From: Macrostomum lignano
Lineage: Eukaryota
Length of the DNA stretch: 64,000 nucleotides
Reading direction: 5' to 3'
Assembly (NCBI GenBank): GCA_002269645.1
Contig: NIVC01001308.1
Span: 98,501 to 162,500 of the forward strand
Position numbers and translations under genes: made by a program. How positions within the stretch are numbered: position 1 is the stretch's first letter; the number at the start of each line of letters is the position of its first letter. Positions 2 to 62,076 of the stretch are shown here, piece by piece. The notes beneath the pieces are model-generated. The model saw only the letters and a program-made list of their open reading frames with translations, made no database searches and had not been told where the DNA came from.

Positions 2-3000
2 CAACATCAAACAGCCGTTATCGCCGAACAAAAAAGACGAAACGAACAAGCCTCAGCCAGATGTTACTACTGCGGACAAGAAGGACATTATCAGATTAAT
101 TGTCCTCATTGGTCAACAAGATACGACAAATCACGACAGATATTCAACAATCAGAAGCCGCAGAAACCATGGCAGCAATATCAAAATCGCCAACAACAAG
201 GCATAAGACGCTTCGGAAATGATAGACGCTTCGGAAATAATGACCGCTCCGGAAATAATGGCCGCTTCGGAAACGAAGGCCGCTTCAGAAATAATGGCTA
301 CAGACCGCGAAACGCCAGATACATGCCCAAGCAACCAACGCAAGCGATGCAACGATACGCGAATGCCATCACGTACACACCGGAAAATGAGCAGCAGGAA
401 CAGCAAGTGTTCACAATTGACGACTTGGAAATGGACTTCACAGTCCCGGAACTTGACATCAGCTTGATCGAAAAGAAGACGACGCACGAGGACAACACTG
501 ACAACACAGAAGAGGCGAATGAAACCGAAATGATCAAATTAAAAGAGACCACCGGAGACAGCAGAGAAAACAGGAAGAAAGTAAACCACAAGAAAAGGGA
601 GGAGACGGAGAGCGACACCGGCAACGAAGAAAAGATAAAGACTGGCAGAGAAAACAACTATGAATCGACAACAGTGGATGACGACAAAACAAGCACAAAA
701 GACAAAGAAATGAAGGAAGAAGAAGAATGTATAAGTTACGGCAACGATCACGACTGCGACGTGCATGATGACACGAACGGATACCGAGCCGAAGAAGGAA
801 TGCAGGAAGAACTGAGAGCGGAAAATCTAAGCTCCGACAGCGATCAAGGCTACGAAATCCAATGGAAAGATGAAGAAATGGAAAAAGAACAGATAAAAGA
901 AAAGCCGAGTTCCGACAGCGACGAATGCTACGAGATCCGATACAAACGAAACGGTGAAGCCTATATTCAAACGGTCGACTACAAGGCAGAAAAAAGATAC
1001 CAAACGCAATGGAGTGAAACAACGGAAACATCGGAAGAAGCTGCAGACGAAGATACTGAAATAACCAAAGAGCAAAGCAAATCAGAAGCCTTCCGCCTGA
1101 ATCAGCCAATGGAACAACCGAAAGAATACGATGCGGACATGGAGGATAACGAATGGCAATCGCGGCCAATGCCAGCAAAGACAACGGCAAGGTCCAAGAA
1201 GTGGAAAAACTGGCTATACTGGATCATCGTGATACTACTGATAGCAGTAGTCGCCAAAGCAACGGCAACGGAAAAGCCAATGATTTGTCCAACGGAGGCG
1301 CATATCCAACCGATGATCTACAAGATACCAACCGACATCAAATGCAGCTACTTCAAGACAAACCAGACGAAGCCAAAGAAGATTACACTCGATCTCTACA
1401 AGGCTAACATCAAGAAGCATCGACAACTCGGAATAGTGTGCTTTAGAGACAAGCACCTAGTGGAAAAAGTTTGGCGAGGACAATGGAACAGAATTCGATT
1501 TTGGCAACACGAACTACATGTGTCGCACGCTGAATGTCTACAATGGAACCAAACACTGTTCTCAAAGGATGGTCAGCTAGAACCGGATGAGAAAGTGGGG
1601 GAGGCACAACTTTACCGAACAAAGAACTCAGCAAACGGACGATATGTACACTTTTCGGAAACATGGACTAACTACATGACACGAAACAGTTACCTAATCA
1701 GGAATATTCCATTCTACCACAATCCTTTTGAAAAAATGGAGTCGCTACAACTGCAATTAAGCGACTGCCGATACAGCAAAGGATGGTGTCCAACGCCGAT
1801 ACTGCGGAATGAGGAACTATACAGCTTACCGTTGAGTCCAACATATCATCAAGACTATCGATGGCAAATTATACGCAGAGGCGACTCACGATATGAAGAA
1901 CCATCTAAGTCACGACAATACTTCCTCGCGTGGGAAGTTGGGCCGGAAATTGACTGCAAGCTGCAAAAGTATCACACAGTTGAAGGAGGTCTACTGTCAA
2001 ATACGTTTTTGGCAAAGTCAGGAGACTTGGCACTGACGTTTCAAAAGAAACCAGTCGAGCAAAAACTGAAATGCAAGGATACAGACAAGACACTATTCAT
2101 CTCGGAACAAGAGATACCAGTCTACGTAAAAGATGACGACAAACAAACCTTTCTGGCAATCATCAACGGAACGTATCAACAGCAGGAACAACAGAACAGA
2201 CGACGACGTGACATCGAACGTCCCAAACTGGTATCAAACCGACTACTGTCAGCAAAGATAACGGCTTTGGATCACAATCTACACAACCAGTTAAACCACT
2301 TGCATCGAACACTGGTCCAGCTAACTTGCAAAATGCACGCAATCAACTTAAATTATGCCAGACAAAACTACTATGTCAACCCTACGATGACTTTTCGTAA
2401 AATCACCGGAATGACGAACGTTTTGGCAGTTCCAATATACGAGCATCTGTTGATATACAAGTGCACGCCGATACAGCACTTCAACATCTTGCCGTCAAAC
2501 ACGTCAACAACCTGCTACGATAAGCCAAGGATTGAAGCGTTCTACGAAGGAAGACGAATTCAAGGATTCTTGGACACGGTACACAACATCATCGTTGGCA
2601 CCGCAATACCGAGACCTTGCACCACAGCAGCAAACTACTATCAACTGGACAATGCACTACACGTCATCAAAACAACTGGAACGACAGCAAACATCACAGA
2701 ACCGGAAGTAATCGTCGACGAAAACTACGACATGGAGGATTTGAAAATCCGATTCAACAGAACGAAGTATACGCCATTCGCCGATATCCAACTTGACGAG
2801 ATAACACCAGGATGGACGATCAACGACTTCTTGCAAGCGTTCATCACCCAACGCAAGATGATTCACCAGCTGTTCACAAGAAAGGACAAAGAAACCGGGA
2901 CAGGAAGATTTCCCGTCCTTGTTTCAATGGACAGCGCCATCAAATCATTTTGGACAAACAGCTTCTGGGAGCTGCTAAATGGAAGAGGCAGTCTCTATCA

Positions 3001-3982
3001 AGGATTCATCTTCTACGGTGCTTGCATTGTGTGGATTGTCACGGCAATCTTCGTCATTTCATCGATCGTACGGTGCCTCAGTCAAACTTGTCCAAGAGCT
3101 AAGAAGACAGTGAATGCCATAATGCAAAGAACGACAACGGAAGGCGACAACAGTTTAGAACTAACAGAAACTGCACATCGTGAGGTTCAAGGGCAACCGA
3201 CACTAGCAACGCGGCTATATCCATCGATTCCGACAACACCAACGGCACCAAGGATACAACCACCCAACTATCAAGCAGAACAGCACGAGCCAAAATGGCC
3301 GGAAAACTACGTCTGTACGCTACACGCCGAGATTGGCAAAGCAATGGCTCAGGTCATTGTCAACAACTTGCCATGTCGAGCACTGCTGGATTCAGGCAGC
3401 TCGATCACAGTCATCTCGCAACAATTATGCAACAAGCTACGACTCGCGGTACGACCAGCAGCAATCGCAGTTGCAGGAGCAGGAGGACATTCACTCAACA
3501 TACTAGGAAAAGCAGATATCGACTTGAAAATTGCTAATAAACAGCTGACGGTCCCGACGTACATCATCGACAGACTACCAAACCAAGACGTCATCGTTGG
3601 AATAGACACGTTCAAACAGCTTCGACTACCATTGACCTTCGACTTCAACAAGCAAACGTTTAGGATCGACACGGTGGAGCAACCACTGATCAATCAGATT
3701 CGAGTACTACCGAAAGTAACTCTGCAGCAAGATGTCATCATCCAGCCTGAAAGCGCATGCTGGGTCAGAGCGAAAGCGACCAGCGCGGCAGATGAAGCAA
3801 TGATATTTGATCCGCACAGGAGAGTCACGGCGAAACATCAAATCATGATGCCTACGGCACTAGTGCTGGTTGCAAAAGATAAACAGCTGCCAGTACAAAT
3901 CTTCAACCCGAACGCGGAAATGGTTCATCTACGACAAGGAATGTGCATCGGTCATCTCAACACTCAGCATCGGTTATGCTGA
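2..3982 (+). CDS. Gag(NC)-Env-protease polyprotein, 5'-truncated by window edge
   Basis: Frame of the 323..3982 ORF has no stop back to base 2 (translated by hand): CYYCGQEGHYQINC at 62-103; hydrophobic WLYWIIVILLIAVVAKATA 1211-1267; Cys-rich ectodomain with several N-x-S/T sequons; RRRR 2198-2209; TM GFIFYGACIVWIVTAIFVISSIV 3002-3070; LLDSGSSITVIS protease; dUTPase-like tail about 3700-3970. Confidence 0.9.
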   Translation, partial: QHQTAVIAEQKRRNEQASARCYYCGQEGHYQINCPHWSTRYDKSRQIFNNQKPQKPWQQYQNRQQQGIRRFGNDRRFGNNDRSGNNGRFGNEGRFRNNGYRPRNARYMPKQPTQAMQRYANAITYTPENEQQEQQVFTIDDLEMDFTVPELDISLIEKKTTHEDNTDNTEEANETEMIKLKETTGDSRENRKKVNHKKREETESDTGNEEKIKTGRENNYESTTVDDDKTSTKDKEMKEEEECISYGNDHDCDVHDDTNGYRAEEGMQEELRAENLSSDSDQGYEIQWKDEEMEKEQIKEKPSSDSDECYEIRYKRNGEAYIQTVDYKAEKRYQTQWSETTETSEEAADEDTEITKEQSKSEAFRLNQPMEQPKEYDADMEDNEWQSRPMPAKTTARSKKWKNWLYWIIVILLIAVVAKATATEKPMICPTEAHIQPMIYKIPTDIKCSYFKTNQTKPKKITLDLYKANIKKHRQLGIVCFRDKHLVEKVWRGQWNRIRFWQHELHVSHAECLQWNQTLFSKDGQLEPDEKVGEAQLYRTKNSANGRYVHFSETWTNYMTRNSYLIRNIPFYHNPFEKMESLQLQLSDCRYSKGWCPTPILRNEELYSLPLSPTYHQDYRWQIIRRGDSRYEEPSKSRQYFLAWEVGPEIDCKLQKYHTVEGGLLSNTFLAKSGDLALTFQKKPVEQKLKCKDTDKTLFISEQEIPVYVKDDDKQTFLAIINGTYQQQEQQNRRRRDIERPKLVSNRLLSAKITALDHNLHNQLNHLHRTLVQLTCKMHAINLNYARQNYYVNPTMTFRKITGMTNVLAVPIYEHLLIYKCTPIQHFNILPSNTSTTCYDKPRIEAFYEGRRIQGFLDTVHNIIVGTAIPRPCTTAANYYQLDNALHVIKTTGTTANITEPEVIVDENYDMEDLKIRFNRTKYTPFADIQLDEITPGWTINDFLQAFITQRKMIHQLFTRKDKETGTGRFPVLVSMDSAIKSFWTNSFWELLNGRGSLYQGFIFYGACIVWIVTAIFVISSIVRCLSQTCPRAKKTVNAIMQRTTTEGDNSLELTETAHREVQGQPTLATRLYPSIPTTPTAPRIQPPNYQAEQHEPKWPENYVCTLHAEIGKAMAQVIVNNLPCRALLDSGSSITVISQQLCNKLRLAVRPAAIAVAGAGGHSLNILGKADIDLKIANKQLTVPTYIIDRLPNQDVIVGIDTFKQLRLPLTFDFNKQTFRIDTVEQPLINQIRVLPKVTLQQDVIIQPESACWVRAKATSAADEAMIFDPHRRVTAKHQIMMPTALVLVAKDKQLPVQIFNPNAEMVHLRQGMCIGHLNTQHRLC

Positions 3983-6852
3983 TTGAGCACGCGACTCCAC
4001 GAATAACGGAGGAAGAGTTCCAAAAGAAAATCAACCTGGACGACAGCCCGATTACGGAACAACAAAAGAAGAAAGTTCGACAACTGTTGTGGAAGTACAA
4101 CGAAGCCTTCTGCCATCATGATTACGACATCGGACGAGCTAAAGACATTAAACAGGAAATCAAGCTTCTACCGCACACGGAACCAATTCAGTGCAAGCCG
4201 TACCCGATCGCCAAGCATCTGCAACAACACTTTGACGAAATCATCGATAAAATGCTAAAGCACGGCATCATCAGCAAAGCTATTTCGGCTTACTCCTCAC
4301 CGTGCCTACTGGTACAAAAGAAGGAGACTAACGAAAGACGACTCGTATGCGACTTCAGACTGTTGAACAAGTACATACCGACGGATCAGCAAAGCCTACC
4401 GAAGATCTCCGAACTATTAGCGAAGCTCAACACGGCAAAACTGTTCACGGTATTCGACCTACGTCATGGATTTTGGCAAATAGAAATCGACAAGGAATCG
4501 CGCCAGTACACAGCCTTCAAGACCTACAATGGACAAGTATACGAGTACAATCGATCGCCGATGGGACTTAGCAACAGCCCAGCAACGATGAGTCGACTCA
4601 CAGCATACATGCTTGCAGGATGCACGAACCTGCTGCACTATGTCGACGACATTTTGGCCTATGGAGAGGATTTCGAGCGACTCTATGAAGCTACGGAGAA
4701 GGCCCTGGCGCTCATTCAACGCCAAGGTCTTAAGCTGCAACCGACGAAATGCAAATTCTTCCGAGACAACGTGCGTTACCTAGGACACCAAGTGACAGCC
4801 AGAGGAATTTCACCGGACCCAGACAACGTGGAGAAGGTAAAAAGGTTTCCTACGCCAACCAGTATAACGAAGGTCCAATCATTCCTTGGACTTGCGCAAT
4901 ACTTCAGGAAGTTCTTACCTAACTTCGCAAAGACAGCAAAGCCACTGTACGACCTGCTCAAGTTCGACAAATGGAAGCAAGACAACTGGACACAAAGACA
5001 ACAGGAAAGTTTCGACGAAATTAAACGACAGCTGACATCAGACGCACTGCTACAGCATCCGGACTTCGACAAGCCCTTCATCATCGAGACAGACGCCTCA
5101 GGAACGGGACTCGGAGCAGTCCTACTACAGGAAACCGAGGACAAGAAGGAACGACCTATTGCTTACGTCAGTCGAGCACTCAAACCAAATGAGACAAAGT
5201 GGTCAGCTACGGAACGAGAGCTACTAGGAGTCTTGTTCGCCCTGCGACAGTTTCATTACTACATCTATGGCTCTCCAATACAGACGATAGTACGCACGGA
5301 TCATGCACCATTGACCTACGTCGTAACTACAAAAGGACAGACCAACAACCGACTCATCAGGATGACACTCAAGATCCAGGACTACAACTACAAACTCGTC
5401 TACAAACCAGGAATTACCAACAAAGCCGCGGACGCCCTGTCAAGAGCCTATGAAGTCAACGCCATTCATCCAATCCCTAACATCAAGGAGTTGGTGGATG
5501 AAACCGAGCGCGATAACTTCTACCAATCGGTTAAAGACGACGACAAGAACATCAAACTCAGTCCCATGGAACGAAAATTCCTACGCAAGCAACGACAACA
5601 CCTAACAATCAATAAGTCACGGCTCTACTGGATGAGCGACAATAAACCTAAGATCTACGTACCATATTCGTTTCGGCAAGCAATTCTCAACGAGCTGCAC
5701 GACAACCCACTCGCCGGACACCTGTCGGCCGCAAAGACCATCGCGAGAGTGGAACAATACTACTTTTGGCCAACTATGTATGGCGACATCAAGCAGTATT
5801 GCAACAACTGCCATTCATGTGCTGCATCAAAGACAGGACGACGACAGAAACCACAGCTACAGTCCATTCCGAAGTCGACTACAATGGACTGTCTAAGCAT
5901 CGACATCACCGGACCACTGCCACCGAGCTGTCTCCAGGGCATCGCCTACACCTACATCCTAACCGCCTTGGACATCTTCTCGAAGTTTGCTATTGCCATA
6001 CCGATACCGGACATCACAGCTCAGACAATAGCAATGAGTTTCTTCAATGAAATCATTTGCAAGTACGGCACGCCGAAGAACCTCACCTCGGACAACGGAT
6101 CGCAGTTTACGTCTCAACTATTTCAGCAAGTTGTGAAGATTCTCAACATTACGCAGATCTACACATCGACCTACAATCCGAAGGCAAACATGGTTGAACG
6201 GTTTCACCGCAACCTGCACGAGATGATTACACATTTCGCGCACCAACAGCCGGAAGACTGGATCATCTACCTGCAATCTGTAACAATGGCTTACAACAGC
6301 GCTATTCATCGATCAACAGACAATACGCCATTCTTCCTAATGTTTGGACGAGACTTCCAACCGCCGAATCTGCTCGCACAGCAATTGCTACCATCGCAGT
6401 ACGTGGAAGTACCGACTTCCATTCAGAAATTCGTCACGCAACTACACCTCGCATGGAAGATCGCCAAGCACAACATTGACAACCAGGTGGCTCTGACCAC
6501 CGGCAACGACGCGAGATGGACAACCCTGACGGCCGGCGACATCGTTTACCTGCACTACCCGCCACAGCAGACGCATAAACATGCACAGAAGTATAAAGGA
6601 CCCTATCGAGTGGTCCAACTAACGTCACCAACAACGGCACGCCTGGCTAATGTGCAAGATCCACATCAGCATCAATTTTACGTGCACATTCATCGACTAA
6701 AGAAGATCAACACTGACACCGCGACGTTTCTACCCACATTGGACAACGCCGATCGCACGCGTTCAACGAACCGCCACATCGCGACGAAGCACGAGGAGAC
6801 TCAAACGACAGATGTGAGCCAGCCACATGGCTACAACCTACGACCACGCTAG
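3943..6852 (+). CDS. pol: Pol: reverse transcriptase - RNase H - integrase (no chromodomain seen)
   Basis: YSSPCLLVQKK, RLVCDFRLLN, FDLRHGFWQI, PMGLSNSP, YVDD; RNase H IETDASGTGLGAVL and ERELLGV; integrase LHDNPLAGH...CHSC, IDITGP, SDNGSQF, VERFHRNL; GPY/F motif KYKGPYRV. Confidence 0.97.
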   Translation: MHRSSQHSASVMLIEHATPRITEEEFQKKINLDDSPITEQQKKKVRQLLWKYNEAFCHHDYDIGRAKDIKQEIKLLPHTEPIQCKPYPIAKHLQQHFDEIIDKMLKHGIISKAISAYSSPCLLVQKKETNERRLVCDFRLLNKYIPTDQQSLPKISELLAKLNTAKLFTVFDLRHGFWQIEIDKESRQYTAFKTYNGQVYEYNRSPMGLSNSPATMSRLTAYMLAGCTNLLHYVDDILAYGEDFERLYEATEKALALIQRQGLKLQPTKCKFFRDNVRYLGHQVTARGISPDPDNVEKVKRFPTPTSITKVQSFLGLAQYFRKFLPNFAKTAKPLYDLLKFDKWKQDNWTQRQQESFDEIKRQLTSDALLQHPDFDKPFIIETDASGTGLGAVLLQETEDKKERPIAYVSRALKPNETKWSATERELLGVLFALRQFHYYIYGSPIQTIVRTDHAPLTYVVTTKGQTNNRLIRMTLKIQDYNYKLVYKPGITNKAADALSRAYEVNAIHPIPNIKELVDETERDNFYQSVKDDDKNIKLSPMERKFLRKQRQHLTINKSRLYWMSDNKPKIYVPYSFRQAILNELHDNPLAGHLSAAKTIARVEQYYFWPTMYGDIKQYCNNCHSCAASKTGRRQKPQLQSIPKSTTMDCLSIDITGPLPPSCLQGIAYTYILTALDIFSKFAIAIPIPDITAQTIAMSFFNEIICKYGTPKNLTSDNGSQFTSQLFQQVVKILNITQIYTSTYNPKANMVERFHRNLHEMITHFAHQQPEDWIIYLQSVTMAYNSAIHRSTDNTPFFLMFGRDFQPPNLLAQQLLPSQYVEVPTSIQKFVTQLHLAWKIAKHNIDNQVALTTGNDARWTTLTAGDIVYLHYPPQQTHKHAQKYKGPYRVVQLTSPTTARLANVQDPHQHQFYVHIHRLKKINTDTATFLPTLDNADRTRSTNRHIATKHEETQTTDVSQPHGYNLRPR

Positions 6853-6972: not shown

Positions 6973-7407
6973 ATGGGCAACGCACTGTCGAAACAGGCGC
7001 CCCAACTTCAGCAGCTATATGACTGCCCGATATGTTTAGCTGATGACTTGGCTGTCAAGCCACCGACTATTTGCATCAATGGACATAAAATTTGCGGACA
7101 ATGTTTAAGTGATTCACACTATATTCAGCCCTGGCAGAATTGTCCCCTCTGTAGAGATAGTTTGCGACAATGCGCCTATTGTTATTCTTGGCGCACGTTT
7201 CAATATTGTAACCAGTAACATTTTATTTGCATGCACGGTTTGAAGCAAACCGCTAGTAGGGGCATTATAGGATGCCCCTTATGTAATAGTATGCCGCGAG
7301 ACTGCACGTTTCGAAAGTGGTGTCGTATCAAACCTGATGCCACTCGATGTCTACGCGATATTCGAGTTTTGACCGCAATATGTACTGAAAAGTTTTTAGA
7401 GTTTTGA
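6973..7407 (+). CDS. Accessory ORF3: MGNALSK N-terminus plus two tandem C3HC4-like RING fingers; in-frame TAA at 7216-7218 interrupts the second finger
   Basis: RING1 CPIC-x12-CINGHKICGQC-x12-CPLC; read-through gives CAYC-x8-CNQ*HFICMHG-x12-CPLC and continues to TGA at 7405-7407. Confidence 0.75.
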
Positions 7408-7520: not shown

Positions 7521-7535
7521 AAAAAAGGGAGATTT
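7521..7535 (+). other. Polypurine tract
   Basis: aaaaaagggag lies immediately upstream of LTR start TGTAG (7536). Confidence 0.75.
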
Positions 7536-8399
7536 TGTAGAGTGTTCTACCGCCCGTTAAAAAAGGTAAAAAGAAGATAATCGTATAATGCTACTATAAG
7601 TAAGTAAGTACACGCATGTACGCCTAAGTTTTGAATGAATCACGCTACCAGAAAAAGATGTTACCAAAATGATACGCAATAAGCCATTTCCCCTTTTAGC
7701 GCAACACGTGAATTGTCATGATACTATTTTGGATCAAAAAACTTGCCTATAAATACAAGCGATCTGAAGCGGTACCGGAGCCATTCTCCCCACGGAAGAG
7801 GAGCGCTCCGAAGAGGAAGCCTTAGGAGGACTTCCTGATATACCAAGTCAAACGAGACTCGGTCGAGTTGTTGCGGTAAGCCTTCCTTATTTGCGCCCGT
7901 TGTGTTAGAGACGTCTCGCTCAAGTCTCTTGAGACTTGAGTCTATTTGAGTCTGTTGAGACTCTTGAGTCTGTTTAGACTCCATTGGTTGCAGTCTCCAG
8001 AAGGACTGCCCCTGATAGATCTTAGAGGACTATCAGTGGTTTCCGGAGCTATACCTAGAGTGCATAGAGGCACTGCTAGAAGAAGGAGGCTTAATTCAAA
8101 CCGCTGTTCGGCGCAGGGTACCCATTGTTGCTACGAGGCCTCTGATTGGTCCTGACGGAAGATACCGGCCGGAAGAAATTATCGGAAGTACAAGAGGAAC
8201 CAGGACCAGAGCAACTGAAGAATCAAGGCGCCTGATCTACGAGATCTACTGACGAGTTCCTAGCGAGTACTACTCAAGAAATTCAAATCCGGATTAAAGG
8301 TAATTAAATACCTTCGTTTGACTTACTGGGTTGCCTAGCTGTTGAGCTAGAAGTGAGTGTTCTTTGATTACCAAAAGTCGTGTAATAAGGAACACATCA
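7536..8399 (+). repeat. 3' LTR (about 864 bp, TGTAG...CATCA)
   Basis: Termini match inverted copies at 12966-13797 and 11390 onward; TATAAA at 7748-7753. Confidence 0.88.
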
Positions 8400-9157
8400 C
8401 CACCTCCGGAATCTTTAGTCCTGTCCTTTGTGCGGCAGGCATCACTTTTATGTCCCACTCGACCGCACTTGCTGCACGTCTTGCTACGGTAGGGGCAGTT
8501 CTTTGCCCAGTGATCTTGTGCATTGCAGCGGAAGCATCCAGATTGATTGTTTCTGTTGTTCTTCTCTGACAAGCCGTCTGTCAGATTTTTACTGGCTCTC
8601 GAAGACTTCACCGCCTGGATTGCACCAGTTGACGAAATTGTCACCACACCTCTTTCCGCTGCTTCCATCGCAGTCGCAAGGGTAAGTGCTCCAGTTAGTG
8701 TCAGTGTGTCTTCTTGCAACAGACGCTGCTGTGTCAGGCGATTCCTTAGGCCGACAACGAACCTGTCTCTCAGTGCCTCGTCCAAGAATTCATTAAAACC
8801 ACACGTGGCAGCCAACTTCCGCAGACTTGCGATGAAATCGCTCACATTTTCTCCTTCATGTTGGGCTCTGCTGTGGAAGTTGAATCTCTCGACAACGATC
8901 TTAGGCATTGGGTTAAAATGCTCCCTCAGGGCCTTGACTTGATCGTCGAAGTTCACATCCTTGGGCTTCTTTGGTGACAGCAGGTTGCGGAGCAATTGAT
9001 AGCAGTCATTACCAATCACTGTAATCAGATTTGCTCGCTTATGTGCCTCCTCGGTCACTTTGTTTACGACGAGAAACTGCTCGAGTCGTTCTTCATAAGC
9101 TTCCCATTGCTCCGGTTTAGCCACGTCGAACTCTCCGATTTTTACACTCGTCGCCAT
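8400..9157 (-). mobile_element. gag: gag of a second, unrelated Gypsy element (two CCHC knuckles), cut off at 8400 by the env-bearing element
   Basis: MATSVKIGEFD...WEAYEERLEQF...LRDRFVVGL...CFRCNAQDHWAKNC...CSKCGRVGHKSDAC; the track ORF tail (DVFLITRLL...) is read-through into the LTR. Confidence 0.88.
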
Positions 9158-9300
9158 TGTTATGTCCTCTTCTTCTGCTTCTATACCGACTATTGCCTCC
9201 AGGCTACCATCTGACATCAAAGTCAAGTCGAAGAAGCATTATTTAAAATACGAGCTGTTCACAAGCTTTATTTGCCTCTAGCCGGCGCACGTCTTGTTTT
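9147..9300 (-). repeat. PBS (TGGCGACGAG) and adjoining 5' LTR end (...CATAACA) of the second Gypsy element; far LTR boundary not resolved
   Basis: Minus strand reads ACATAACA-A-TGGCGACGAG with the gag ATG overlapping the PBS; AATAAA on minus strand near 9270. Confidence 0.6.
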
Positions 9301-11389: not shown

Positions 11390-11960
11390 TGATGTGTTCC
11401 TTATTACCAGACCTTCTCTGTAATCAAGGAACAATCACTTCTAGAACTTTAGCTAGGCAACCCAGTATTCAACTGAAGGTAGTTATTACCTTGAGTCCGG
11501 TTGAGTAGTTCTCTTCCTGTGAGTTGATCTCGCAATAGGAATCGGTTAGATCAGTTGATCTGGCGCCTTACTTCTTGTCTCGGGTCCGAGTCTTCTTTGT
11601 ATTCCTTGCCGGCCGGTATCTGTAGTGTAGACCAATAGGAAGCTTCCAATTAATAATAGGATCCTTGCGCCAACAGCGGTATCAAATAAGCCTACTCCTT
11701 CTAGCAGTGACTTGATGCACTCTAGGTATAGCTCCGGTAATCACTGATAGTCCTCTAAGATCTATCAGGGCAGTCCTTCTGGAGATTGCAACCAATGGAG
11801 TCTAAATAGACTCAAGAGTCTCAACAGACTCAAACTAAACTCAAATGAGACGTCTCAACAACAGGCGCAAATGAGTAAGGCTTCAGGAAGTCCTGCTGAG
11901 GCTTCCTCTTCGGAGCTCTTCTCCTTCCGGAGGATTTCTTGGCACTTGTATTTATAGGTA
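11390..11960 (-). repeat. LTR of the same family in inverted orientation (may extend to about 12393)
   Basis: Reverse complement aligns by eye with about 7750-8399, including the ...GGAACACATCA end; possible other end TGTAAAAA at 12393 with imperfect TSD ATTG/ATTT. Confidence 0.8.
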
Positions 11961-12965: not shown

Positions 12966-13797
12966 TGATGTGTTCCTTACTACCAAGACTTTTTAGTAGT
13001 CAAGGAACAATCACTTCTAACTTCTTTGCTAGGCAACCCAGTTATCAGATAAAGGTACTTCTTACCTTGACTTCGATTGGAGATATCTCTTCAGGAGTTC
13101 TCTTGTAGATCTCGCTTGGATCTCTCTTTGATCTCGTAGATCAGGCGCCTTGGTTCTCCTGTTGCCCTGGTCCTGGTTCTTCTTGCACTTCTGATGAAGT
13201 GACTTCCGGCCGGTGTCTGCAGTCAGGACCAATCAGAGGCCTCGCATCAAATAATGGGTACCCTGCGCCGAATAGCGGTTTCTCCTTAGCCTTCTCCTTC
13301 TAGTAGTGCCTCTATGCACTCTAGGTAATGCTCCGGTAATCTCTAATAGATCCTCTAAGATCCTCTACTCAACAACAACTGGCGCAAATGAGAAAGGCTT
13401 ACCGCAACAGCTCGACCGAGTCTCGATAGACTTGGTGATCAGGAAGTCCCTCTAAGGACTTCCTCTTCGGAGCGCTCCTCTTCCGTGGGGAGAATGACTC
13501 CGGTACCGCTTTGGGCCGCTTGTATTTATAGACGATTTTGCAGGCCAAAAATAGTAACATGACTCATGGGTTGCGCTATAATTGGTAACATGACTCTTTG
13601 CGGCTATTATTAGAAAGTGATTCATTCCGTTGCAATAAATAGTAACATGATTCATTCTGCTGATATAAATTGTAACATGATTCATAACATGATTCATCGT
13701 TAAAGTTTAGGTCCGCATGCGTGCACTTACTTACTTACAGTAGCATCCATCCTAGGATTATCAATTACTTCTTTTGCGGGAGGTAGAACACTCTACA
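12966..13797 (-). repeat. Solo LTR of the same family with 4-bp TSD AAAG
   Basis: Minus strand TGTAGAGTGTTCTACC...GGAACACATCA; AAAG at 12962-12965 and 13798-13801. Confidence 0.88.
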
Positions 13798-32586: not shown

Positions 32587-34437
32587 TTATTGTCCACCAG
32601 GATATGGTGCACCACCTTGCTGTGCAACCGGATATGGTCCACCACCTGGTTGTGCACCAGGATATGGTGCACCACCTGGCTGTGCACCAGGATATGGTGC
32701 ACCACCTGACTGTGCACCAGGATATGGGGCAGAACCAGGCTGCACGCCAGGGTAAGAAGCATCGCCAAAAAAGCCACCCGAAATTCCGGCACCACCAGCG
32801 GCTGACGGAGCGTCGTTGCGAACTCGAGGCGGACCAGCTCGAATTCCGCGACGCCTCATCCACTCGCACACCTGATTCGGAAGCTCCGCCAGTACCTCCT
32901 TCGCCAAGGCATACCTGCTGCGATCAATGTTGCCACCCTGAATGAAACGACGCAAAGGAACGAATTGGACGACATCTCTTTCGGCGATCATCGACCCGCA
33001 GCGAAGTCGTTTGTCGTCTGAGTCCAGATCCTTCATCGCAGAGAAGTCCTCGTTTCCGACACCAACTATGATTATGGACATCGGTAGAGATGACGCCTTG
33101 ATGATTGCCTGCTTCGTCTTCTCGAAGTCCGTGATGATTCCGTCAGTGATGATCAGCAGTACAAAGTACTGAGCTCCTGTCTGGTGAGCCGCAGCCATTG
33201 ACGCTACGTGGTTGATCACGGGCGAAAAGTTTGTCGGACCGTACAGTCGCACCGCTCTGATGCAAGACCGATAGGCCGCGAGAAGACCTAGCATTCCTGC
33301 GCAGTACGGGTTTTCGGGCTGCAGAGTCAGCGAGAACGCATCCTGAACTCCCGAGAACATTGGAGGCAACAGAGCTCCGAAGCCCAGTCCGGGAAACTGC
33401 TTGTCTGAGTCGTAGTCCTGCACAATCTCTCCTACCGAAATTATCGCCAGCTCGTACTGGTTCGGTCGGCCGTCGGCGCTCACGTGGTGCAGCGAGCGAG
33501 GGTCTCTGGGGTCTCCGTTGCTGCCCGTGAAGTCGATTGCAACCGTGAAGTGCAGCTCAGTGCCGCCCTGAATGTAGTCGACGAACGAGTCGATGGTCTC
33601 GATTCCGATCTGGCTGAACACGATGGTTCCAGCCGACTTTTTCTTCTTGCTGATGAGGGTTCGTTGGGCGGAGCGGCTCCGAGCCACCTCCTGCTCCAAG
33701 CTCTCCAGGCTGCTGTAAAAGCTTCCTATCAGATCATGAGAGCCGTCTCCATCATAATCATAGCAATCAAATCGTAGGATTAAACGCTTATTACCACGAC
33801 AGATTCGAGCGACTGGTACAGAAAACATTGCCCATCGTGGGTTCAAGTTATTCTTAATAACCTCCGTTCGATGCACAAGAGACCAATTGCGAACGTGGTT
33901 TAACTCGTCTTCGCTTGTTACATCTTCAAGTGGTTGATAGATTTCAAGAAATGGATCTGATTTGCCAAGAAAGTCTTTTTTATCAAGTTTGTGCCCTTCA
34001 ATTTGAAAGTTAACAACTTGCTTGCACTCTTGAACTTCTACACAGGTTACAGTAATGATGGACGTCTTCGAACTTTTTGTCCTGCAAAGTTTAGTTTCGA
34101 ATCGACGTCGGCTTACAAGCTCGCCGATCGAAGTCTCCAACTCGCCGAGAAAGTCGTGCTCAGACAGTCGAGCACTCGGACTGTCCAAGTCGTAAATTTG
34201 AAACTTCACCAGCTGACGCTCCTCGAACATGAAGTCGACAATGAACCGATGGCTGAATTCGGGATCAAGCGTGTTGTTCAGTCTCTCAGTTCTGCCGATT
34301 TCTTGAAAGTTGGAAGTTCCCGGCTGGCGCAGGAACAGGACGCACTGAGGATCTGACTTGGAGGTGACGTCACGGTCAGGCAGATTTCTGCAGGACACGC
34401 TGATCTCAACGCGACTGGTTAGGCTTGGGCTGGACAT
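32587..34437 (-). CDS. CPNE: Copine A (C2A-C2B-vWA, PYPG-repeat tail), intronless, about 616 aa
   Basis: SKSDPQCV, KKDFLGKSDPFLEI, VAIDFTGSNG, LLIITDGIITD, SIIIVGVG, RDVVQFVP; first ATG at 34437. Confidence 0.95.
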   Translation of the reverse strand: MSSPSLTSRVEISVSCRNLPDRDVTSKSDPQCVLFLRQPGTSNFQEIGRTERLNNTLDPEFSHRFIVDFMFEERQLVKFQIYDLDSPSARLSEHDFLGELETSIGELVSRRRFETKLCRTKSSKTSIITVTCVEVQECKQVVNFQIEGHKLDKKDFLGKSDPFLEIYQPLEDVTSEDELNHVRNWSLVHRTEVIKNNLNPRWAMFSVPVARICRGNKRLILRFDCYDYDGDGSHDLIGSFYSSLESLEQEVARSRSAQRTLISKKKKSAGTIVFSQIGIETIDSFVDYIQGGTELHFTVAIDFTGSNGDPRDPRSLHHVSADGRPNQYELAIISVGEIVQDYDSDKQFPGLGFGALLPPMFSGVQDAFSLTLQPENPYCAGMLGLLAAYRSCIRAVRLYGPTNFSPVINHVASMAAAHQTGAQYFVLLIITDGIITDFEKTKQAIIKASSLPMSIIIVGVGNEDFSAMKDLDSDDKRLRCGSMIAERDVVQFVPLRRFIQGGNIDRSRYALAKEVLAELPNQVCEWMRRRGIRAGPPRVRNDAPSAAGGAGISGGFFGDASYPGVQPGSAPYPGAQSGGAPYPGAQPGGAPYPGAQPGGGPYPVAQQGGAPYPGGQ

Positions 34438-35863
34438 CTGTAATTTTTTGCACAAATTTTCTATCGCTTAAGTGTTGAAAAATTGTAGGAACATCTCAAC
34501 TTAAGCCATACTGACTGACAATTAGGCTAGTTCTGTCGGCTGTAAACTTAAGTATTGCGTTGGATATAGCATTGAGACACAGTCGGGGCTTATATTATAT
34601 ATTAAAATATTGAACCTTAAAATACAGAAGAAACAAACCTTTATTTTGCAGCCAATTTACCGCCAAAAAATTAAGCTAAATATAGAACCATGGCGGACGC
34701 ACCAAGTTTAATCTAGTAAAAGCAAGGTAGAAATAAAAATTGCTTGCTTCATTTACGCAACTATGTAGGTCATTGCTTCACTTTCGTCGCTTTGCGAAAA
34801 GAGTTAGTCATCTTTTCAGCAAAGCTTGCTACAGGCAAGAGAGAGACACTTAAGCGCCTGTTCAATAACCAAACACACGTAGCACTGAAGCAAACTCGTA
34901 ACAATATAATGCTTTCGTATACGTGATGCTTGCATACTACGAATTTCTAGCGACTGCCAAAAGCACAAAATATCTTTACTGTCTTGTTGTGTGGGTTAGT
35001 ATGCCAGAACCTTGTGCAAACATTCAGTGTAGCTATTTCAACTCGATTTGTAAGGCCACATTCGAATACACGCTGAGCATTCAAGTGTATGCTTATCGAG
35101 AAAATCTAAAAATAGCCTGCTTCTCAAACTTAATAAGATATGGTAGCTACATTTAGATTCAATGTACGCTCGTGCAGTATATTCATCGCCATATACTAAA
35201 TTTAGTATACAATTAATATATTCTGAAACTCTGAATAGCTTCCAGAAGGTCGTCTAGCGTAATCACTTATTCATAGTTTCAGTTAAAATAAATTGACTAA
35301 AAAGCAATGTTTTTCGCCAGGAAAACCTCTGGGAGCTGTACGTATATTATTCACAACTAGCGTAAACTGGCAAAACTTCACGGATCGCAGGACAGTAACA
35401 AAAAACAAATAATTATAAAGGAATAAAGACGGATTGCTTTTTTAACGCTGAATAAACACAACTGGAACCTCCATCGGACATTGTATGGATGTGTATGGAT
35501 CCTAAAAATATGTGTATGGATAGGCTTGTACATATCCTTTATAGCTTACTTTTCGTTAATGTAAGCAATGGTGGTATGAGTAGAACCGAGAGCTTCGAAC
35601 CGGATTGAAACATAGAGAGAAATATATGGCCGGGAAATTGCGTTGTAGGCAAAGTTCTGCGTGTAACTACTGATTGCTTCTCTTAGAGAGAAATCACCTC
35701 ATTGGTTACTATACAGTGAAGAATCTATTAAACATGTGTATTAATATGATACAAAAGCTTTGATTTAGTAAATACCTGGAGGATTAAGTATTGTATACGT
35801 CATTCCAAACTATTGTAGTAGTGTCAGTGAATGGAGCACACACGGCACAGAGGGAGGCGTGGG

Positions 35864-37742: not shown

Positions 37743-39644
37743 TCAAGGAGCACTGGGAGGCACACCCAGATACGGAGGTACTGAAGCCTGGGCGCCGCCA
37801 GAAGCGGATGGATAGGCCGGCGGTGGTGCAGTCGGAGCCGCAGCTCCAGGAGCATAGACTGGACCTGCAGGATAGCCAGGCTGAGGGGCGCCAGGATATC
37901 CTGGACCCGATTGAGGCACACCGGGATACGGAGCACCAGGATATTGAGCTCCTCCTGGTTGAGTGCCAGGGTACGGAGCGCTTCCAGGAATTCCGGCACC
38001 ACCAGCAACTAACGGAGCGTCGTTGCGAACTCGAGGCGGACCAGCTCGAATTCCGCGACGCCTCATCCACTCGCACACCTGATTCGGAAGCTCCGCCAGT
38101 ACCTCCTTCGCCAAGGCATACCTGCTGCGATCAATGCTGCCACCCTGAATGAAACGACGCAAAGGAACGAATTGGACGACATCTCTTTCGGCGATCATCG
38201 ACCCGCAACGAAGTCGTTTGTCGTCGGAGTCGAGCTCCTCCATCGCAGAGAAGTCCTCGTCTCCGACACCAACTATGATTATGGACATCGGTAGAGATGA
38301 CGCCTTGATGATTGCCTGCTTCGTCTTCTCGAAGTCCGTGATGATTCCGTCAGTGATGATCAGCAGTACAAAGTACTGAGCTCCTGTCTGGTGAGCCGCA
38401 GCCATTGACGCTACGTGGTTGATCACGGGCGAAAAGTTTGTCGGGCCGTACAGTCGCACCGCTCTGATGCAAGACCGATAGGCCGCGAGAAGACCTGGCA
38501 TTCCTGCGCAGTACGGGTTTTCGGACTGCAGAGTCAGCGAGAACGCATCCTGAACTCCCGAGAACATTGGAGGCAACAGAGCTCCGAAGCCCAGTCCGGG
38601 AAACTGCTTGTCTGAGTCGTAGTCCTGCACAATCTCTCCTACCGAAATTATCGCCAGCTCGTACTGGTTCGGTCGGCCGTCGGCGCTCACGTGGTGCAGC
38701 GAGCGAGGGTCTCTGGGGTCTCCATTGCTACCCGTGAAGTCGATTGCAACCGTGAAGTGCAGCTCAGTGCCGCCCTGAATGTAGTCGACGAACGAGTCGA
38801 TGGTCTCGATTCCGATCTGGCTGAACACGATGGTTCCAGCCGACTTTTTCTTCTTGCTGATGAGGGTTCGTTGGGCGGAGCGGCTCCGGGCCACCTCCTG
38901 CTCCAAGCTCTCCAGACTGCTGTAAAAGCTGCCGATAAAATCGTGCGACCCGTCGCTGTCGTAGTCGTGGCAGTCGAAGCGAAGTAGCAGCTGCCTGTTT
39001 CCGCGGCACAAACGGTTCAGTGGAACCAAAAATTTGGCCCATCGCGGGTTCAAATTGTTCTTGATTACTTCGGTACGATGTACAAGTGTCCAATGTCGGA
39101 CTTTATTGACTTCATTTTCACTCGTAATTTCCTCCATTGGCTGATAAATTTCAAGGTAAGGATCGGATTTTCCAAGAAAGTCTTTTTTGTCAAGCTTTTT
39201 TCCTTCGGCAATGAAACTGACTATTTGTTTGCACTCTTGAAGCTCGAAACACGTGATTATAATTGTGGACTTCTTGTGTCCAGTTTTGGACAAAGTAGTT
39301 TCGAATCGACGTCGGCTTACAAGCTCGCCGATCGAAGTCTCTAACTCGCCGAGAAAGTCGTGTTCAGACAGTCGAGCACTCGGACTGTCCAAGTCGTAAA
39401 TTTGAAACTTCACCAGCTGACGCTCCTCGAACATGAAGTCGACAATGAACCGATGGCTGAATTCGGGATCAAGCGTGTTGTTCAGCTTTTCAGTTCTGCC
39501 GATTTCTTGAAAATTAGAAGTTCCCGGCTGGCGCAGGAACAGGACGCACTGGGGATCTGACTTGGAGGTGACGTCGCGGTCAGGCAGATTTCTGCAGGAC
39601 ACGCTGATCTCAACGCGACTGGTGAGGCTTGGGCCGGACATCAT
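37743..39644 (-). CDS. CPNE: Copine B, intronless, about 633 aa, tail with PTAP, PPAY and terminal PSAP
   Basis: Same copine motifs; first ATG at 39644. Confidence 0.95.
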   Translation of the reverse strand: MMSGPSLTSRVEISVSCRNLPDRDVTSKSDPQCVLFLRQPGTSNFQEIGRTEKLNNTLDPEFSHRFIVDFMFEERQLVKFQIYDLDSPSARLSEHDFLGELETSIGELVSRRRFETTLSKTGHKKSTIIITCFELQECKQIVSFIAEGKKLDKKDFLGKSDPYLEIYQPMEEITSENEVNKVRHWTLVHRTEVIKNNLNPRWAKFLVPLNRLCRGNRQLLLRFDCHDYDSDGSHDFIGSFYSSLESLEQEVARSRSAQRTLISKKKKSAGTIVFSQIGIETIDSFVDYIQGGTELHFTVAIDFTGSNGDPRDPRSLHHVSADGRPNQYELAIISVGEIVQDYDSDKQFPGLGFGALLPPMFSGVQDAFSLTLQSENPYCAGMPGLLAAYRSCIRAVRLYGPTNFSPVINHVASMAAAHQTGAQYFVLLIITDGIITDFEKTKQAIIKASSLPMSIIIVGVGDEDFSAMEELDSDDKRLRCGSMIAERDVVQFVPLRRFIQGGSIDRSRYALAKEVLAELPNQVCEWMRRRGIRAGPPRVRNDAPLVAGGAGIPGSAPYPGTQPGGAQYPGAPYPGVPQSGPGYPGAPQPGYPAGPVYAPGAAAPTAPPPAYPSASGGAQASVPPYLGVPPSAP

Positions 39645-41145
39645 GCACAAGTTTGTACCGATTAAACTCGATTCGGTTTAATACAGATTACCGCCCGTGT
39701 AATCAGTGTAGCTTTACTTTACTTGCATAGAAAAATGTCACCCTCATAATGCTACAATCGATGAGCAAAGTAAACATCCTGCCCTAAAATAGGTTTGCTG
39801 TTATCGTACTTTACTCGTTCAGGATCTGAAGAATGAGATTATATGCCTATGCAAGAGGCCATTGGCAATGAACTAATCTTAGTAATTACGACCTAGTTCT
39901 AGTTTAGGCATGCAAACTTGGCTGAAGTTACTATTTTAGAAAGATTAACTGGAACGTTGTCAAGAAGCAGTAAATGATTTATTAATTAATAATTCTATCG
40001 TACTTTTGCACAATTCCATAAGGAACAATTTAAATATTTGGAAAATCAGCACTTTTTGAATAAGCGAGATTTTTTTAGGCCTTGATCAAGTAATATAACG
40101 AAGCAAAAATATAATGAATATACAATTTCAGCATTTAGCTTGACGGCAATGTCGGAATAGCAGACGTACCGGTAGGTATTCAAAACCAGTAAATATTAAT
40201 TTCGTGGATACATGATTTAAAAACATACAATTGCGGCGAAATTGGATTGGCAAATAGTAGCAGTATAAATAGAGTGGGAAAAGTATTTTAATTAAAGTAC
40301 AAAACAGTTCACGTCTTATCCGTCGGATGCATTAATCTTTTCTTGTGGAAAGCAAAAGCAGAATAACTATTTAGTAACAAGAATTATATTTTCATAACTA
40401 CTGACGAGCAGCACTTTAAATTACGATTTCCAATAGCATTCTATGGAAAAATTAATAATTTCGATAATATTTTTATGTAAACTCGTAGTCACTGCTTGCT
40501 ACGTAAGGAAAAATGATCTTTCTAACCCGTCAGACAGAAAATTAGGCTTTTTTATTGCCTATACTCAATACAAATTAAAGCCAGCTTAGATCATTAACAG
40601 CTAGCAGAAACTCTGCCGATTACAATAGAAAACCAATTTGAATCTTTTTTAGGCATCTCAACTTTATGACAATTTGGTTAGAATGCATTCGAGTTGCTGA
40701 TACTGGTATAGAATTTCTATTCTTTTCAGTGTGGCCATATGTGACGACGTCGTTAGCATCTTAAATTTTTAGTTTCTATGTGAGTTTTTATTACTTAAAA
40801 TTATTATAGTTGATTAATTTGCAGGTTCCCCAGCCATTAATTTAATGTAATTTATTTAGAAAAAATGTACTTAAGTTTTATTTATTTAAGTCCAAGTTAT
40901 TACTACTTTTTTGATAGATATCTTAGGTTTAAATGAATCGGATTTCCCCGCCAATTTAAATTGTTGCCTCGCGCTCGTTTTGTACTCTCCTCAACTCGGC
41001 ATTTTGTCTCGTACCATGCGTGTCAACACTACTAATAATTGAACTAGCTAACCAATAAATAAATACTAATAAATAATTAACAAATAATTAATTAATCGCT
41101 GACTACATCTCGAACTCGCTACGTCACACATAGATAAGTGAAACG

Positions 41146-41761: not shown

Positions 41762-43900
41762 TTAAGGAGCACTGGGCTGCGTCCCTCCGGCTACAGAGTA
41801 ATTTTGAGCCAAGTGGCCATAGCCGGCTTGACGAGAGCTCACTTGAATACCGGGGTAATTTGCGGCGCCATACTGGCCTGGACCAGTAGGATATCCTCCA
41901 ACATTTTGATAAGCACCAGGATACCCTGCGCCACCAGTAGGAGCACCAGGATACCCTGCGCCACCCGTAGGGGCACCAGGATACCCTGCGCCACCCGTAG
42001 GGGCACCAGGATACCCTGCGCCACCCGCAGGGGCACCAGGATACCCTGCGCCACCCGTAGGGGCACCAGGATACCCTGCGCCACCCGCAGGGGCACCAGG
42101 ATACCCTGCGCGACCCGCAGGGGCACCAGGATACCCTGCGCCACCCGCAGGGGCACCAGGATACACTGCGCCACCCGTAGGGACACCAGGATAAGAAGGA
42201 GCTGAAGCAGGAGAGCCATCAGTACCTGGTGCGGCAGTAAATGAGGATGGGGCAACAGGGCCTGACGCTGGAACATTTGAATCAGATCGCACTTTAGGCG
42301 GACCAGCTCGAATTCCGCGACGCCTCATCCACTCGCACACCTGATTCGGAAGCTCCGCCAGTACCTCCTTCGCCAAGGCATACCTGCTGCGATCAATGCT
42401 GCCACCCTGAATGAAGCGACGCAAAGGAACGAACTGAACAATGTCTCTCTCAGCGATCATCGAACCGCAGCGAAGTCGTTTGTCGTCGGAGTCGAGCTCC
42501 TCCATCGCAGAGAAGTCCTCGTCTCCGACACCAACTATGATTATGGACATCGGTAGAAATGACGCCTTGATGATTGCCTGCTTCGTCTTCTCGAAGTCCG
42601 TGATGATTCCGTCAGTGATGATCAGCAGTACAAAGTACTGAGCTCCTGTCTGGTGAGCCGCAGCCATTGACGCTACGTGGTTGATCACGGGCGAAAAGTT
42701 TGTCGGGCCGTACAGTCGCACCGCTCTGATGCAAGACCGATAGGCCGCGAGAAGACCTGGCATTCCTGCGCAGTACGGGTTTTCGGGCTGCAGAGTCAGC
42801 GAGAACGCATCCTGAACTCCCGAGAACATTGGAGGCAACAGAGCTCCGAAGCCCAGTCCGGGAAACTGCTTGTCTGAGTCGTAGTCCTGCACAATCTCTC
42901 CTACCGAAATTATCGCCAGCTCGTACTGGTTCGGTCGGCCGTCGGCGCTCACGTGGTGCAGCGAGCGAGGGTCTCTGGGGTCTCCGTTGCTGCCCGTGAA
43001 GTCGATTGCAACCGTGAAGTGCAGCTCAGTGCCGCCCTGAATGTAGTCGACGAACGAGTCGATGGTCTCGATTCCGATCTGGCTGAACACGATGGTTCCA
43101 GCCGACTTTTTCTTCTTGCTGATGAGGGTTCGTTGGGCGGAGCGGCTCCGGGCCACCTCCTGCTCCAAGCTCTCCAGACTGCTGTAAAAGCTGCCGATAA
43201 AATCGTGCGACCCGTCGCTGTCGTAGTCGTGGCAGTCGAAGCGAAGTAGCAGCTGCCTGTTTCCGCGGCACAAACGGTTCAGTGGAATCGAGAATGGAGC
43301 CCATTTTGGGTTTAAATTCTTTTTAATGAATTCGGTTCTGTGCACCAAGACCCAACTGCGAACTCTGGGTACTTCTGATTCAGTTTGTATTTCATCCATC
43401 GGCTGATAAATCTCCAGAAAAGGGTCAGACTTGCCAAAGAAGTCTTTCTTGTCAAGTTTGACGCCTTCGACGCGAAAATTGGCAATTAGTTTGCACTCCT
43501 GAAGCTCCAAGCAGGTCAGTATAATGAGAGATTTTTTTGTACTGCCAGTCTTGGTCAAAGCCGCCTCGTACTGTCGCCGACTGACAAGTTCACCAACAGT
43601 GGTCTCAAGTTCGCCTAAAAAGTCATGGTCCTGCAGGGCTGCGCGCGAGCTGTCAACATCGTAGAGCCGAAAAATGACTACCTGTCTTTCCTCGAAGCAG
43701 AAGTCTACTTGAAACTTGTGATTGAATTGCGGGTTTAGGGTGTTCTGTATGCATTCAGTGCGACCAAATTCATGCGTTGATGTTGGCGTTTTCATGAACA
43801 GGACACACATTGGATCAGATTTGGACATGACATCACGATCTGGCAAGTTCTTGCAAGAGACAATGATCTCCACCCTGCTAGTGAGCTGAGGAGCTGCCAT
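41762..43900 (-). CDS. CPNE: Copine C, intronless, 712 aa, 27-bp GYPGAPxGGA repeat tail, terminal PSAP
   Basis: Same copine motifs; about 9 tandem 27-bp units at about 41920-42190. Confidence 0.95.
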   Translation of the reverse strand: MAAPQLTSRVEIIVSCKNLPDRDVMSKSDPMCVLFMKTPTSTHEFGRTECIQNTLNPQFNHKFQVDFCFEERQVVIFRLYDVDSSRAALQDHDFLGELETTVGELVSRRQYEAALTKTGSTKKSLIILTCLELQECKLIANFRVEGVKLDKKDFFGKSDPFLEIYQPMDEIQTESEVPRVRSWVLVHRTEFIKKNLNPKWAPFSIPLNRLCRGNRQLLLRFDCHDYDSDGSHDFIGSFYSSLESLEQEVARSRSAQRTLISKKKKSAGTIVFSQIGIETIDSFVDYIQGGTELHFTVAIDFTGSNGDPRDPRSLHHVSADGRPNQYELAIISVGEIVQDYDSDKQFPGLGFGALLPPMFSGVQDAFSLTLQPENPYCAGMPGLLAAYRSCIRAVRLYGPTNFSPVINHVASMAAAHQTGAQYFVLLIITDGIITDFEKTKQAIIKASFLPMSIIIVGVGDEDFSAMEELDSDDKRLRCGSMIAERDIVQFVPLRRFIQGGSIDRSRYALAKEVLAELPNQVCEWMRRRGIRAGPPKVRSDSNVPASGPVAPSSFTAAPGTDGSPASAPSYPGVPTGGAVYPGAPAGGAGYPGAPAGRAGYPGAPAGGAGYPGAPTGGAGYPGAPAGGAGYPGAPTGGAGYPGAPTGGAGYPGAPTGGAGYPGAYQNVGGYPTGPGQYGAANYPGIQVSSRQAGYGHLAQNYSVAGGTQPSAP

Positions 43901-53158: not shown

Positions 53159-62076
<8,918 letters not shown>

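Follow-up and report, generated by a model that had tools for sequence, protein, structure and literature searches.

The window, by which is meant the whole analysed stretch of 64,000 nucleotides of Macrostomum lignano (contig NIVC01001308.1), was found to contain at 2..3982 (+) the C-terminal part of a Gag-Env-protease frame that was open for 1326 aa and had its start upstream of the window. With the upstream DNA (locus L021) the frame was found to comprise 1581 aa, its first Met lying some 640 bases upstream of the window, and no Gly-2 myristoylation signal was found at the N-terminus of Gag. A CCHC nucleocapsid zinc knuckle was present at 62..103 (+) (Pfam zf-CCHC at aa 21-36), followed by the presence of five copies of an 18-bp tandem repeat at 205..298 (+), which code for basic R-F-G-N-rich repeats, and of an acidic linker with 28% D+E at 332..1186 (+). 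An earlier note on this DNA had described the frame as open from base 2 and as carrying the knuckle, and this was confirmed; the positions it gave for the knuckle, the membrane segments and the DSG of the protease were right as well.

The aspartic protease was found at 3350..3619 (+) (Pfam aa 1117-1206, E 9e-10) with its DSG at 3389-3397, followed by a conserved post-protease segment of unassigned fold at 3650..3961 (+). The label of a dUTPase-like segment, which had been proposed for this part, was not supported, as no Pfam match was found for the segment alone or in six aligned copies, the profile of the six aligned copies gave 0 PDB matches at E 10, and the single-sequence structure model (pLDDT 30) was unusable. 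The pol frame was present at 3883..6852 (+) and contained by Pfam the reverse transcriptase (RT, about 4315-4794), RNase H (RH, about 4987-5385) and integrase (IN, about 5659-6180), with a GPY motif near its end, all on the + strand. The Pfam scan of the window thus gave the order PR-RT-RH-IN with a gypsy-type RNase H and an H2C2 integrase. This pol frame differs from that of 2..3982, so that of the single polypeptide put forward earlier the part from nucleocapsid to protease stood, whereas RT-RH-IN were found to occupy a separate frame in the window copy, a point that had been missed. The frame break between the protease region and the RT (3960..3982 (+)) was specific to the window copy. Near 3960-3980, 17 of 19 other loci were found in the phase of the uninterrupted ones, unlike the window copy, and a programmed frameshift was rejected for this reason; from the phase comparison the break is read as damage or an assembly error.

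The 3' LTR at 7536..8399 (+) contained 864 bp bounded by TG...CA and was identical to the 5' LTR, which was found upstream of the window at L021:3781-4644. A polypurine tract was present at 7521..7531 (+). The target-site duplication CCAC at 8400..8403 (+) had been predicted before the upstream DNA was at hand, and the same four bases were found to precede the 5' LTR. The gag start, the primer-binding site (PBS) and the 5' LTR, all of which had been expected upstream, were located in L021. The PBS followed the 5' LTR and was complementary to the 3' end of the host tRNA-Val(AAC) genes, with a match of 14 bases in the window family as against 20 printed bases in the sister family; the first tRNA pattern used matched loci without tRNA genes and was discarded. 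The features of an LTR retroelement, namely two TG...CA LTRs, a target-site duplication, a PBS and a polypurine tract, were thus all present, and the identical LTRs together with the duplication show that the insertion is recent and was made by an integrase.

An env-less LTR element in the opposite orientation (window 8297-9238 (-) and L021:479-3835 (-)) was found to harbour this insertion. The pol of this env-less element lies left of the 5' LTR, whereas beyond the 3' LTR, on the right, its gag was found, Retrotrans_gag-like and with two knuckles; its RT was 31% identical to that of the window element. Further right, at 11390-11929 and 12966-13797 (-), fragments 75-89% identical to the LTR of the element were present, the broken remains of older LTRs that belong to a related family.

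Between pol and the 3' LTR the two remnants of a broken tandem-RING accessory ORF were found, the first half at 6973..7218 (+) (81 aa; Pfam Sina_RING E 2e-4, below the cut-off) and the second at 7231..7407 (+). Compared with longer copies, the cassette of the window copy is short of about 1.05 kb, a second RING ORF among it. These longer copies contained a 222-aa ORF followed by the second RING ORF, and the sister family contained ORFs of 216 aa and 248 aa. A RING ORF was present 2-6.5 kb downstream of 71 of the 77 env matches described below as against upstream of 8, when the best 115 of 151 RING matches were considered. The RING proteins were found to keep 15 of 17 cysteines between families, and their Pfam scores were below the curated cut-off in three of the four proteins scanned. 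They are probably E3 ligases. Of 93 candidates with lengths of 122-389 aa, none was a homologue of the RING ORF at E 0.001, and the Atlas look-alikes of this ORF were viral RING proteins at 0.90-0.91, a recognition below threshold that serves only as a lead. An arenavirus Z-like, myristoylated RING was considered and was not found to be general, the MG start of the window family being absent in loci L027, L028 and L034. Shortened cassettes were found in many copies, so that a copy may not need the cassette in cis. The window copy, broken between protease and RT and again in its RING cassette, would depend on other copies.

At least 77 genomic matches to the env segment were found, 73 of 264 candidates having been scored, and the RT was found to have 81 matches from 150 of 4182 candidates scored. 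An env match was present within 3.5 kb upstream of 70 of the 81 RT matches and within 4.5 kb downstream of none, and an RT was present downstream of 73 of the 77 env matches. Eleven RT matches were without an upstream env; nine of these were more diverged (45-83% identical), and their env may have gone unscored, and the other two were 92-99% identical. Open frames of 2370-2538 aa were found to contain 12 of the 77 env matches, and the order CCHC-env-PR-RT-RH-IN was found in one frame in 12 of 14 fetched regions, which were chosen for long frames. The expectation that the order is conserved in other genomic copies was therefore borne out by the counts around the RT matches.

A misjoin between knuckle, env and protease was checked against the contigs of four runs, which came from four studies (runs without an RNA record), and all 30 bins were found to be covered. 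Single contigs spanned the junction of knuckle and linker (19-695), of linker and Env start (896-1315), of Env and tail (2569-3313) and of tail and catalytic DSG (3144-3492). As env lies upstream of 70 of the 81 RT matches and the junctions are spanned by contigs of independent runs, the gag-env-pro-pol layout is neither a product of chance nor an assembly join.

The sister family (L027/L036 and L028) was found to be 64% identical to the window family in env and 82% in RT; its LTRs of about 920 bp were 99% identical, and it contained two tandem-RING ORFs. Among the databases 54 homologues of the Env were found, and the 25 of them with 900 aa or more were scanned. In 8 of these 25, including one from a nematode, a single chain contained env with RT behind it, and the BEL/Pao order of pol followed by env was present in 1 (P0039). 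Those with a name were from Macrostomum lignano and Panagrolaimus superbus. The nearest named relative was a 2852-aa protein of Macrostomum lignano (P0003) with the same domain order in a single chain. Its family was 29% identical to the window in env and 42% in RT, and PSAP was present in its tail as well as ahead of its first hydrophobic segment. In another homologue (P0019) env was flanked by aspartyl-protease matches. In a small RT tree, built without named reference elements, the window, L026, L027, L034 and P0003 formed a group (99/98) apart from the other homologues. Contigs C2121, C1130, C87, C272 and C4009 were found to contain dense clusters in which copies are nested or in tandem and RING ORF matches are numerous; these clusters could be trap or piRNA-cluster-like loci.

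The Env ectodomain at 1277..3001 (+) contained 575 aa with 12 cysteines and 6 N-glycosylation sequons, and it was assigned to the class III (gB or nyamivirus-like) fusion proteins. The sequons were only mildly enriched in it (1.0 per 100 aa as against 0.4-0.9 elsewhere). Pfam Monjiviricetes_fusion was matched at aa 749-885 with E 2.8e-5, below the curated cut-off; the single-sequence PDB search gave nothing meaningful, a word-based search gave 1 homologue, and no match was found among phages. A profile of 41 Env sequences matched herpesvirus gB chains, with EBV gB as the best (E 2e-15). The AlphaFold model of the Env (pLDDT 76, pTM 0.50) was found by Foldseek to match KSHV gB as the top entry of the PDB (E 5.6e-21, TM 0.51), with the gB of HSV-1 and EBV also matched. 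In the viral library the Midway nyavirus glycoprotein was the top match (E 1e-23), with chuvirus and rhabdo-like glycoproteins also present. The question of whether the ectodomain is a genuine fusion-protein homologue is thus answered in its favour by the profile and the fold searches, and by profile and model the Env is to be classed as a class III fusogen. The 12 cysteines were common to all eight frames scanned, and a furin-type site, RRRR at 2198..2209 (+) in the window, was present as R-x-K/R-R at the same place in all eight. Among four within-family pairs the dN/dS of env was 0.04-0.14, that of RT and integrase 0.004-0.05, and that of the acidic linker, the least constrained part, 0.31-0.48. 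The env is under purifying selection, and the family is, on this reading of its sequences, real and functional at the family level.

By hydropathy just two segments (1214-1270 and 3002-3058) were found to be of membrane length, and pol contained none. The first, a predicted internal signal/anchor, was preceded by a basic stretch (together 1196..1270 (+)) and had an Ala-X-Ala end resembling a signal-peptidase site, at which cleavage would be expected. The second, at 3002..3070 (+) with its best 19-residue window at 3002-3058, is the predicted transmembrane anchor of the Env. Both segments were kept in all eight frames scanned, though the first was only 20% identical between families. The two-pass topology proposed in the earlier note fits the hydropathy of the Gag-Env-protease frame. 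Its suggestion that signal peptidase would release Gag was not supported: signal peptidase cleaves on the lumenal side, and such a cut would leave segment 1 on Gag as a C-terminal anchor until a viral or an intramembrane protease cuts. The stoichiometric coupling of Gag, Env and enzymes, also proposed there, would hold at a ratio of 1:1:1 wherever a copy has its frame intact, and stays conjectural.

The cytosolic tail that links Env to the protease was found to contain LYPSI, PTAP and PPNY at 3215..3271 (+), which are putative late-domain motifs and which, by labels borrowed from retrovirology, would be ligands of TSG101, ALIX and Nedd4. They fall within 19 residues and make up three of the four such motifs in the 2538-aa frame. 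The window, L027, L034 and P0003 each contained both P(T/S)AP and YPx(L/I) in the tail, and in shuffles both turned up at frequencies of 2.5e-4 to 8.5e-4, for a motif set that was picked after inspection of the tail and for four families that are related to each other. The order of the motifs was swapped in the tails of L027, L034 and P0003 with respect to the window, and the first two families shared only 35% identity in their tails. The tail of L028 contained PNAP where PTAP was expected, and among the nine homologues with a callable tail a late-domain-like motif was present in only three, P0003 being one of them.

The earlier note knew of no described family with this order, and this does not hold. 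In the text of Chary & Hayashi (eLife 2026, PMC13524379) errantiviruses of Nematoda, Bryozoa and Platyhelminthes are described with a gB-type env and the order GAG-ENV-POL, Sacco et al. 2022 (J Gen Virol 103:1739) are credited for nematode elements with Env before pol, and for M. lignano the ORFs of the ENV-POL type are counted as 93 for pol and 51 for env. The elements described there resemble the window element in gag-env-pol order, in an Env between two hydrophobic segments, in a Ty3/Gypsy pol and in being multi-copy. The env of the window element was found between gag and pol, with its class III ectodomain between a signal/TM and a TM segment, as in gB-type errantiviruses. Platyhelminthes_Rhabditophora_Mlig_errantivirus_2 is listed in the same paper (PMC13524379) with 16 copies, an 864-bp LTR, an LTR spacing of 9727 bp and a gB-type env; the window element was found to share the LTR length and the same 12-nt PBS, and its spacing was 9755. 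The PBS of that entry is classed there as 'others', whereas the PBS of the window element matches tRNA-Val(AAC). The window element is very probably Mlig_errantivirus_2, on the basis of LTR length, PBS and spacing, the env of that entry being absent from the supplement sequences searched.

The main text of PMC13524379 was found to contain no mention of polyprotein, in frame, RING, accessory or fused. The single-frame topology, the tail motifs and the RING cassette are thus not discussed in that main text, though its figures or the authors' repository may show the single frame. A literature search, with most subscription journals outside its range, gave no report of RING in LTR retrotransposons, no relevant report of late domains in gypsy elements and no further report of a Macrostomum envelope in a gypsy context. 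Against the published text covered, the gag-env-pol order is already known, and what is new here is the late-domain-like motifs of the tail and the RING genes 3' of pol.

Nematode endogenous retroviruses share with the window element an Env that precedes pol and differ from it in their hosts, and the Panagrolaimus protein was found to contain env-PR-RT-RH-IN in one chain. Those of Sacco and colleagues reportedly contain a continuous gag-env-pro-pol ORF, a nyamivirus-like env and extra ORFs for a helicase or a small unknown protein and not for a RING, and are said to form by RT a monophyletic nematode clade (NERV). The RT of the Panagrolaimus protein, the one named nematode homologue, was about 29% identical to that of the window and fell in another clade, which argues against NERV membership of the window element. 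In the structural polyproteins of flaviviruses, alphaviruses and hepaciviruses the capsid precedes an internal signal by which the glycoprotein is translocated, and signal peptidase makes the cut. They work alike and are unrelated RNA viruses, with class II fusogens and without RT, integrase or LTRs. Atlas virus, from nematodes, shares with the window element one polyprotein (Gag-Pol-Env, 2828 aa), identical LTRs and a non-myristoylated Gag (text covered of 10.64898/2026.03.22.711591), and differs from it in an Env that comes last and is class II (phlebovirus-like), in three knuckles and in belonging to BEL/Pao. The window element was found to contain one CCHC, no Peptidase_A17 match and an env before pol, and so does not fall in BEL/Pao. 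LTR elements of bdelloid rotifers (Rodriguez et al. 2017, PMC5408684) resemble it in captured accessory ORFs 3' of pol; these are GDSL esterases and DEDDy exonucleases, RING being absent from the text of that paper.

Taken together, the element is quite probably a recently active, multi-copy Ty3/Gypsy GAG-ENV-POL errantivirus of gB type that assembles by an ER-tethered polyprotein route. The chain would be made on the ER with Gag in the cytosol, as the basic residues before segment 1 would keep Gag cytosolic and direct the ectodomain, through segment 1, into the lumen. Signal peptidase would cut after Ala-X-Ala and free the N-terminus of Env, with Gag left tethered by segment 1. Segment 2 would return the chain to the cytosol, so that tail, protease and Pol would hang on Env until the protease dimerises and cuts, and clustering of Env trimers would bring the protease monomers together. 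Furin would split Env, the tail motifs would recruit ESCRT through TSG101, ALIX and Nedd4-type ligases, and an enveloped particle would bud. The RING proteins would act as ubiquitin ligases, either in budding or against host silencing.

The same anatomy might instead serve budding into the ER or endosomes or direct passage from cell to cell, with no free extracellular virion. This is held to be unlikely: a Gag without the myristoylation signal, which would be ER-anchored by segment 1, and the high copy number, which is typical of genomic spread, would suit it, but the element keeps a furin-type site, a feature of late secretion, as well as a complete class III ectodomain on which purifying selection is strong, and both fit a later fusion, wherever this takes place. 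A little less likely again is that the main product is something other than the single frame and that splicing, premature termination or ribosome drop-off would give Gag-only and Gag-Pol products in a ratio other than 1:1:1. Most LTR elements make an excess of Gag, and the RING ORFs behind pol would need their own message or re-initiation, so that sub-genomic RNAs probably exist; against this, no clear env-skipping splice was found among the 15 joints listed of 19, in contigs that by their nature cannot show absence. That a viral glycoprotein was inserted in frame once, or that the assembly was misjoined, is hardly credible, as the broken state of the window copy near 3960-3980 is set against an order kept in dozens of copies, in sister families and in long database homologues down to a nematode, against purifying selection on env and against the spanned junctions.

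Within the favoured reading, the ER-tethered route of an errantivirus, the assembly itself may be novel, with Gag on a C-terminal membrane anchor in place of an N-terminal matrix domain, late domains on the Env tail and not in Gag, and the element's own tandem-RING ligases for budding and counter-defence, a proposal put forward tentatively and with somewhat less than even confidence. If true, it would describe a 'complex' errantivirus in which the signals for budding have been transferred to Env and accessory genes for ubiquitin ligases have been gained. The assembly of gag-env-pol elements is not addressed in the literature covered, and the M. lignano family offers testable handles, namely two conserved membrane segments, the furin-type site, the tail motifs, the tRNA-Val primer and the RING cassette, in a laboratory flatworm.

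The remainder of the window was found to contain three tandem, apparently intronless paralogues with Gly-Pro-Tyr-rich tails at 32587-34467, 37743-39677 and 41762-43912 (-), which by their sequence resemble copines. These were followed by the presence of long open frames at 54031-56154 (-), presumably those of a Na+/K+-ATPase alpha subunit. Long tandem-repeat arrays with spurious open frames were present at 18.5-20.1, 22.6-23.5, 47.7-48.3, 49.5-52.4 and 58.6-63.5 kb of the window.
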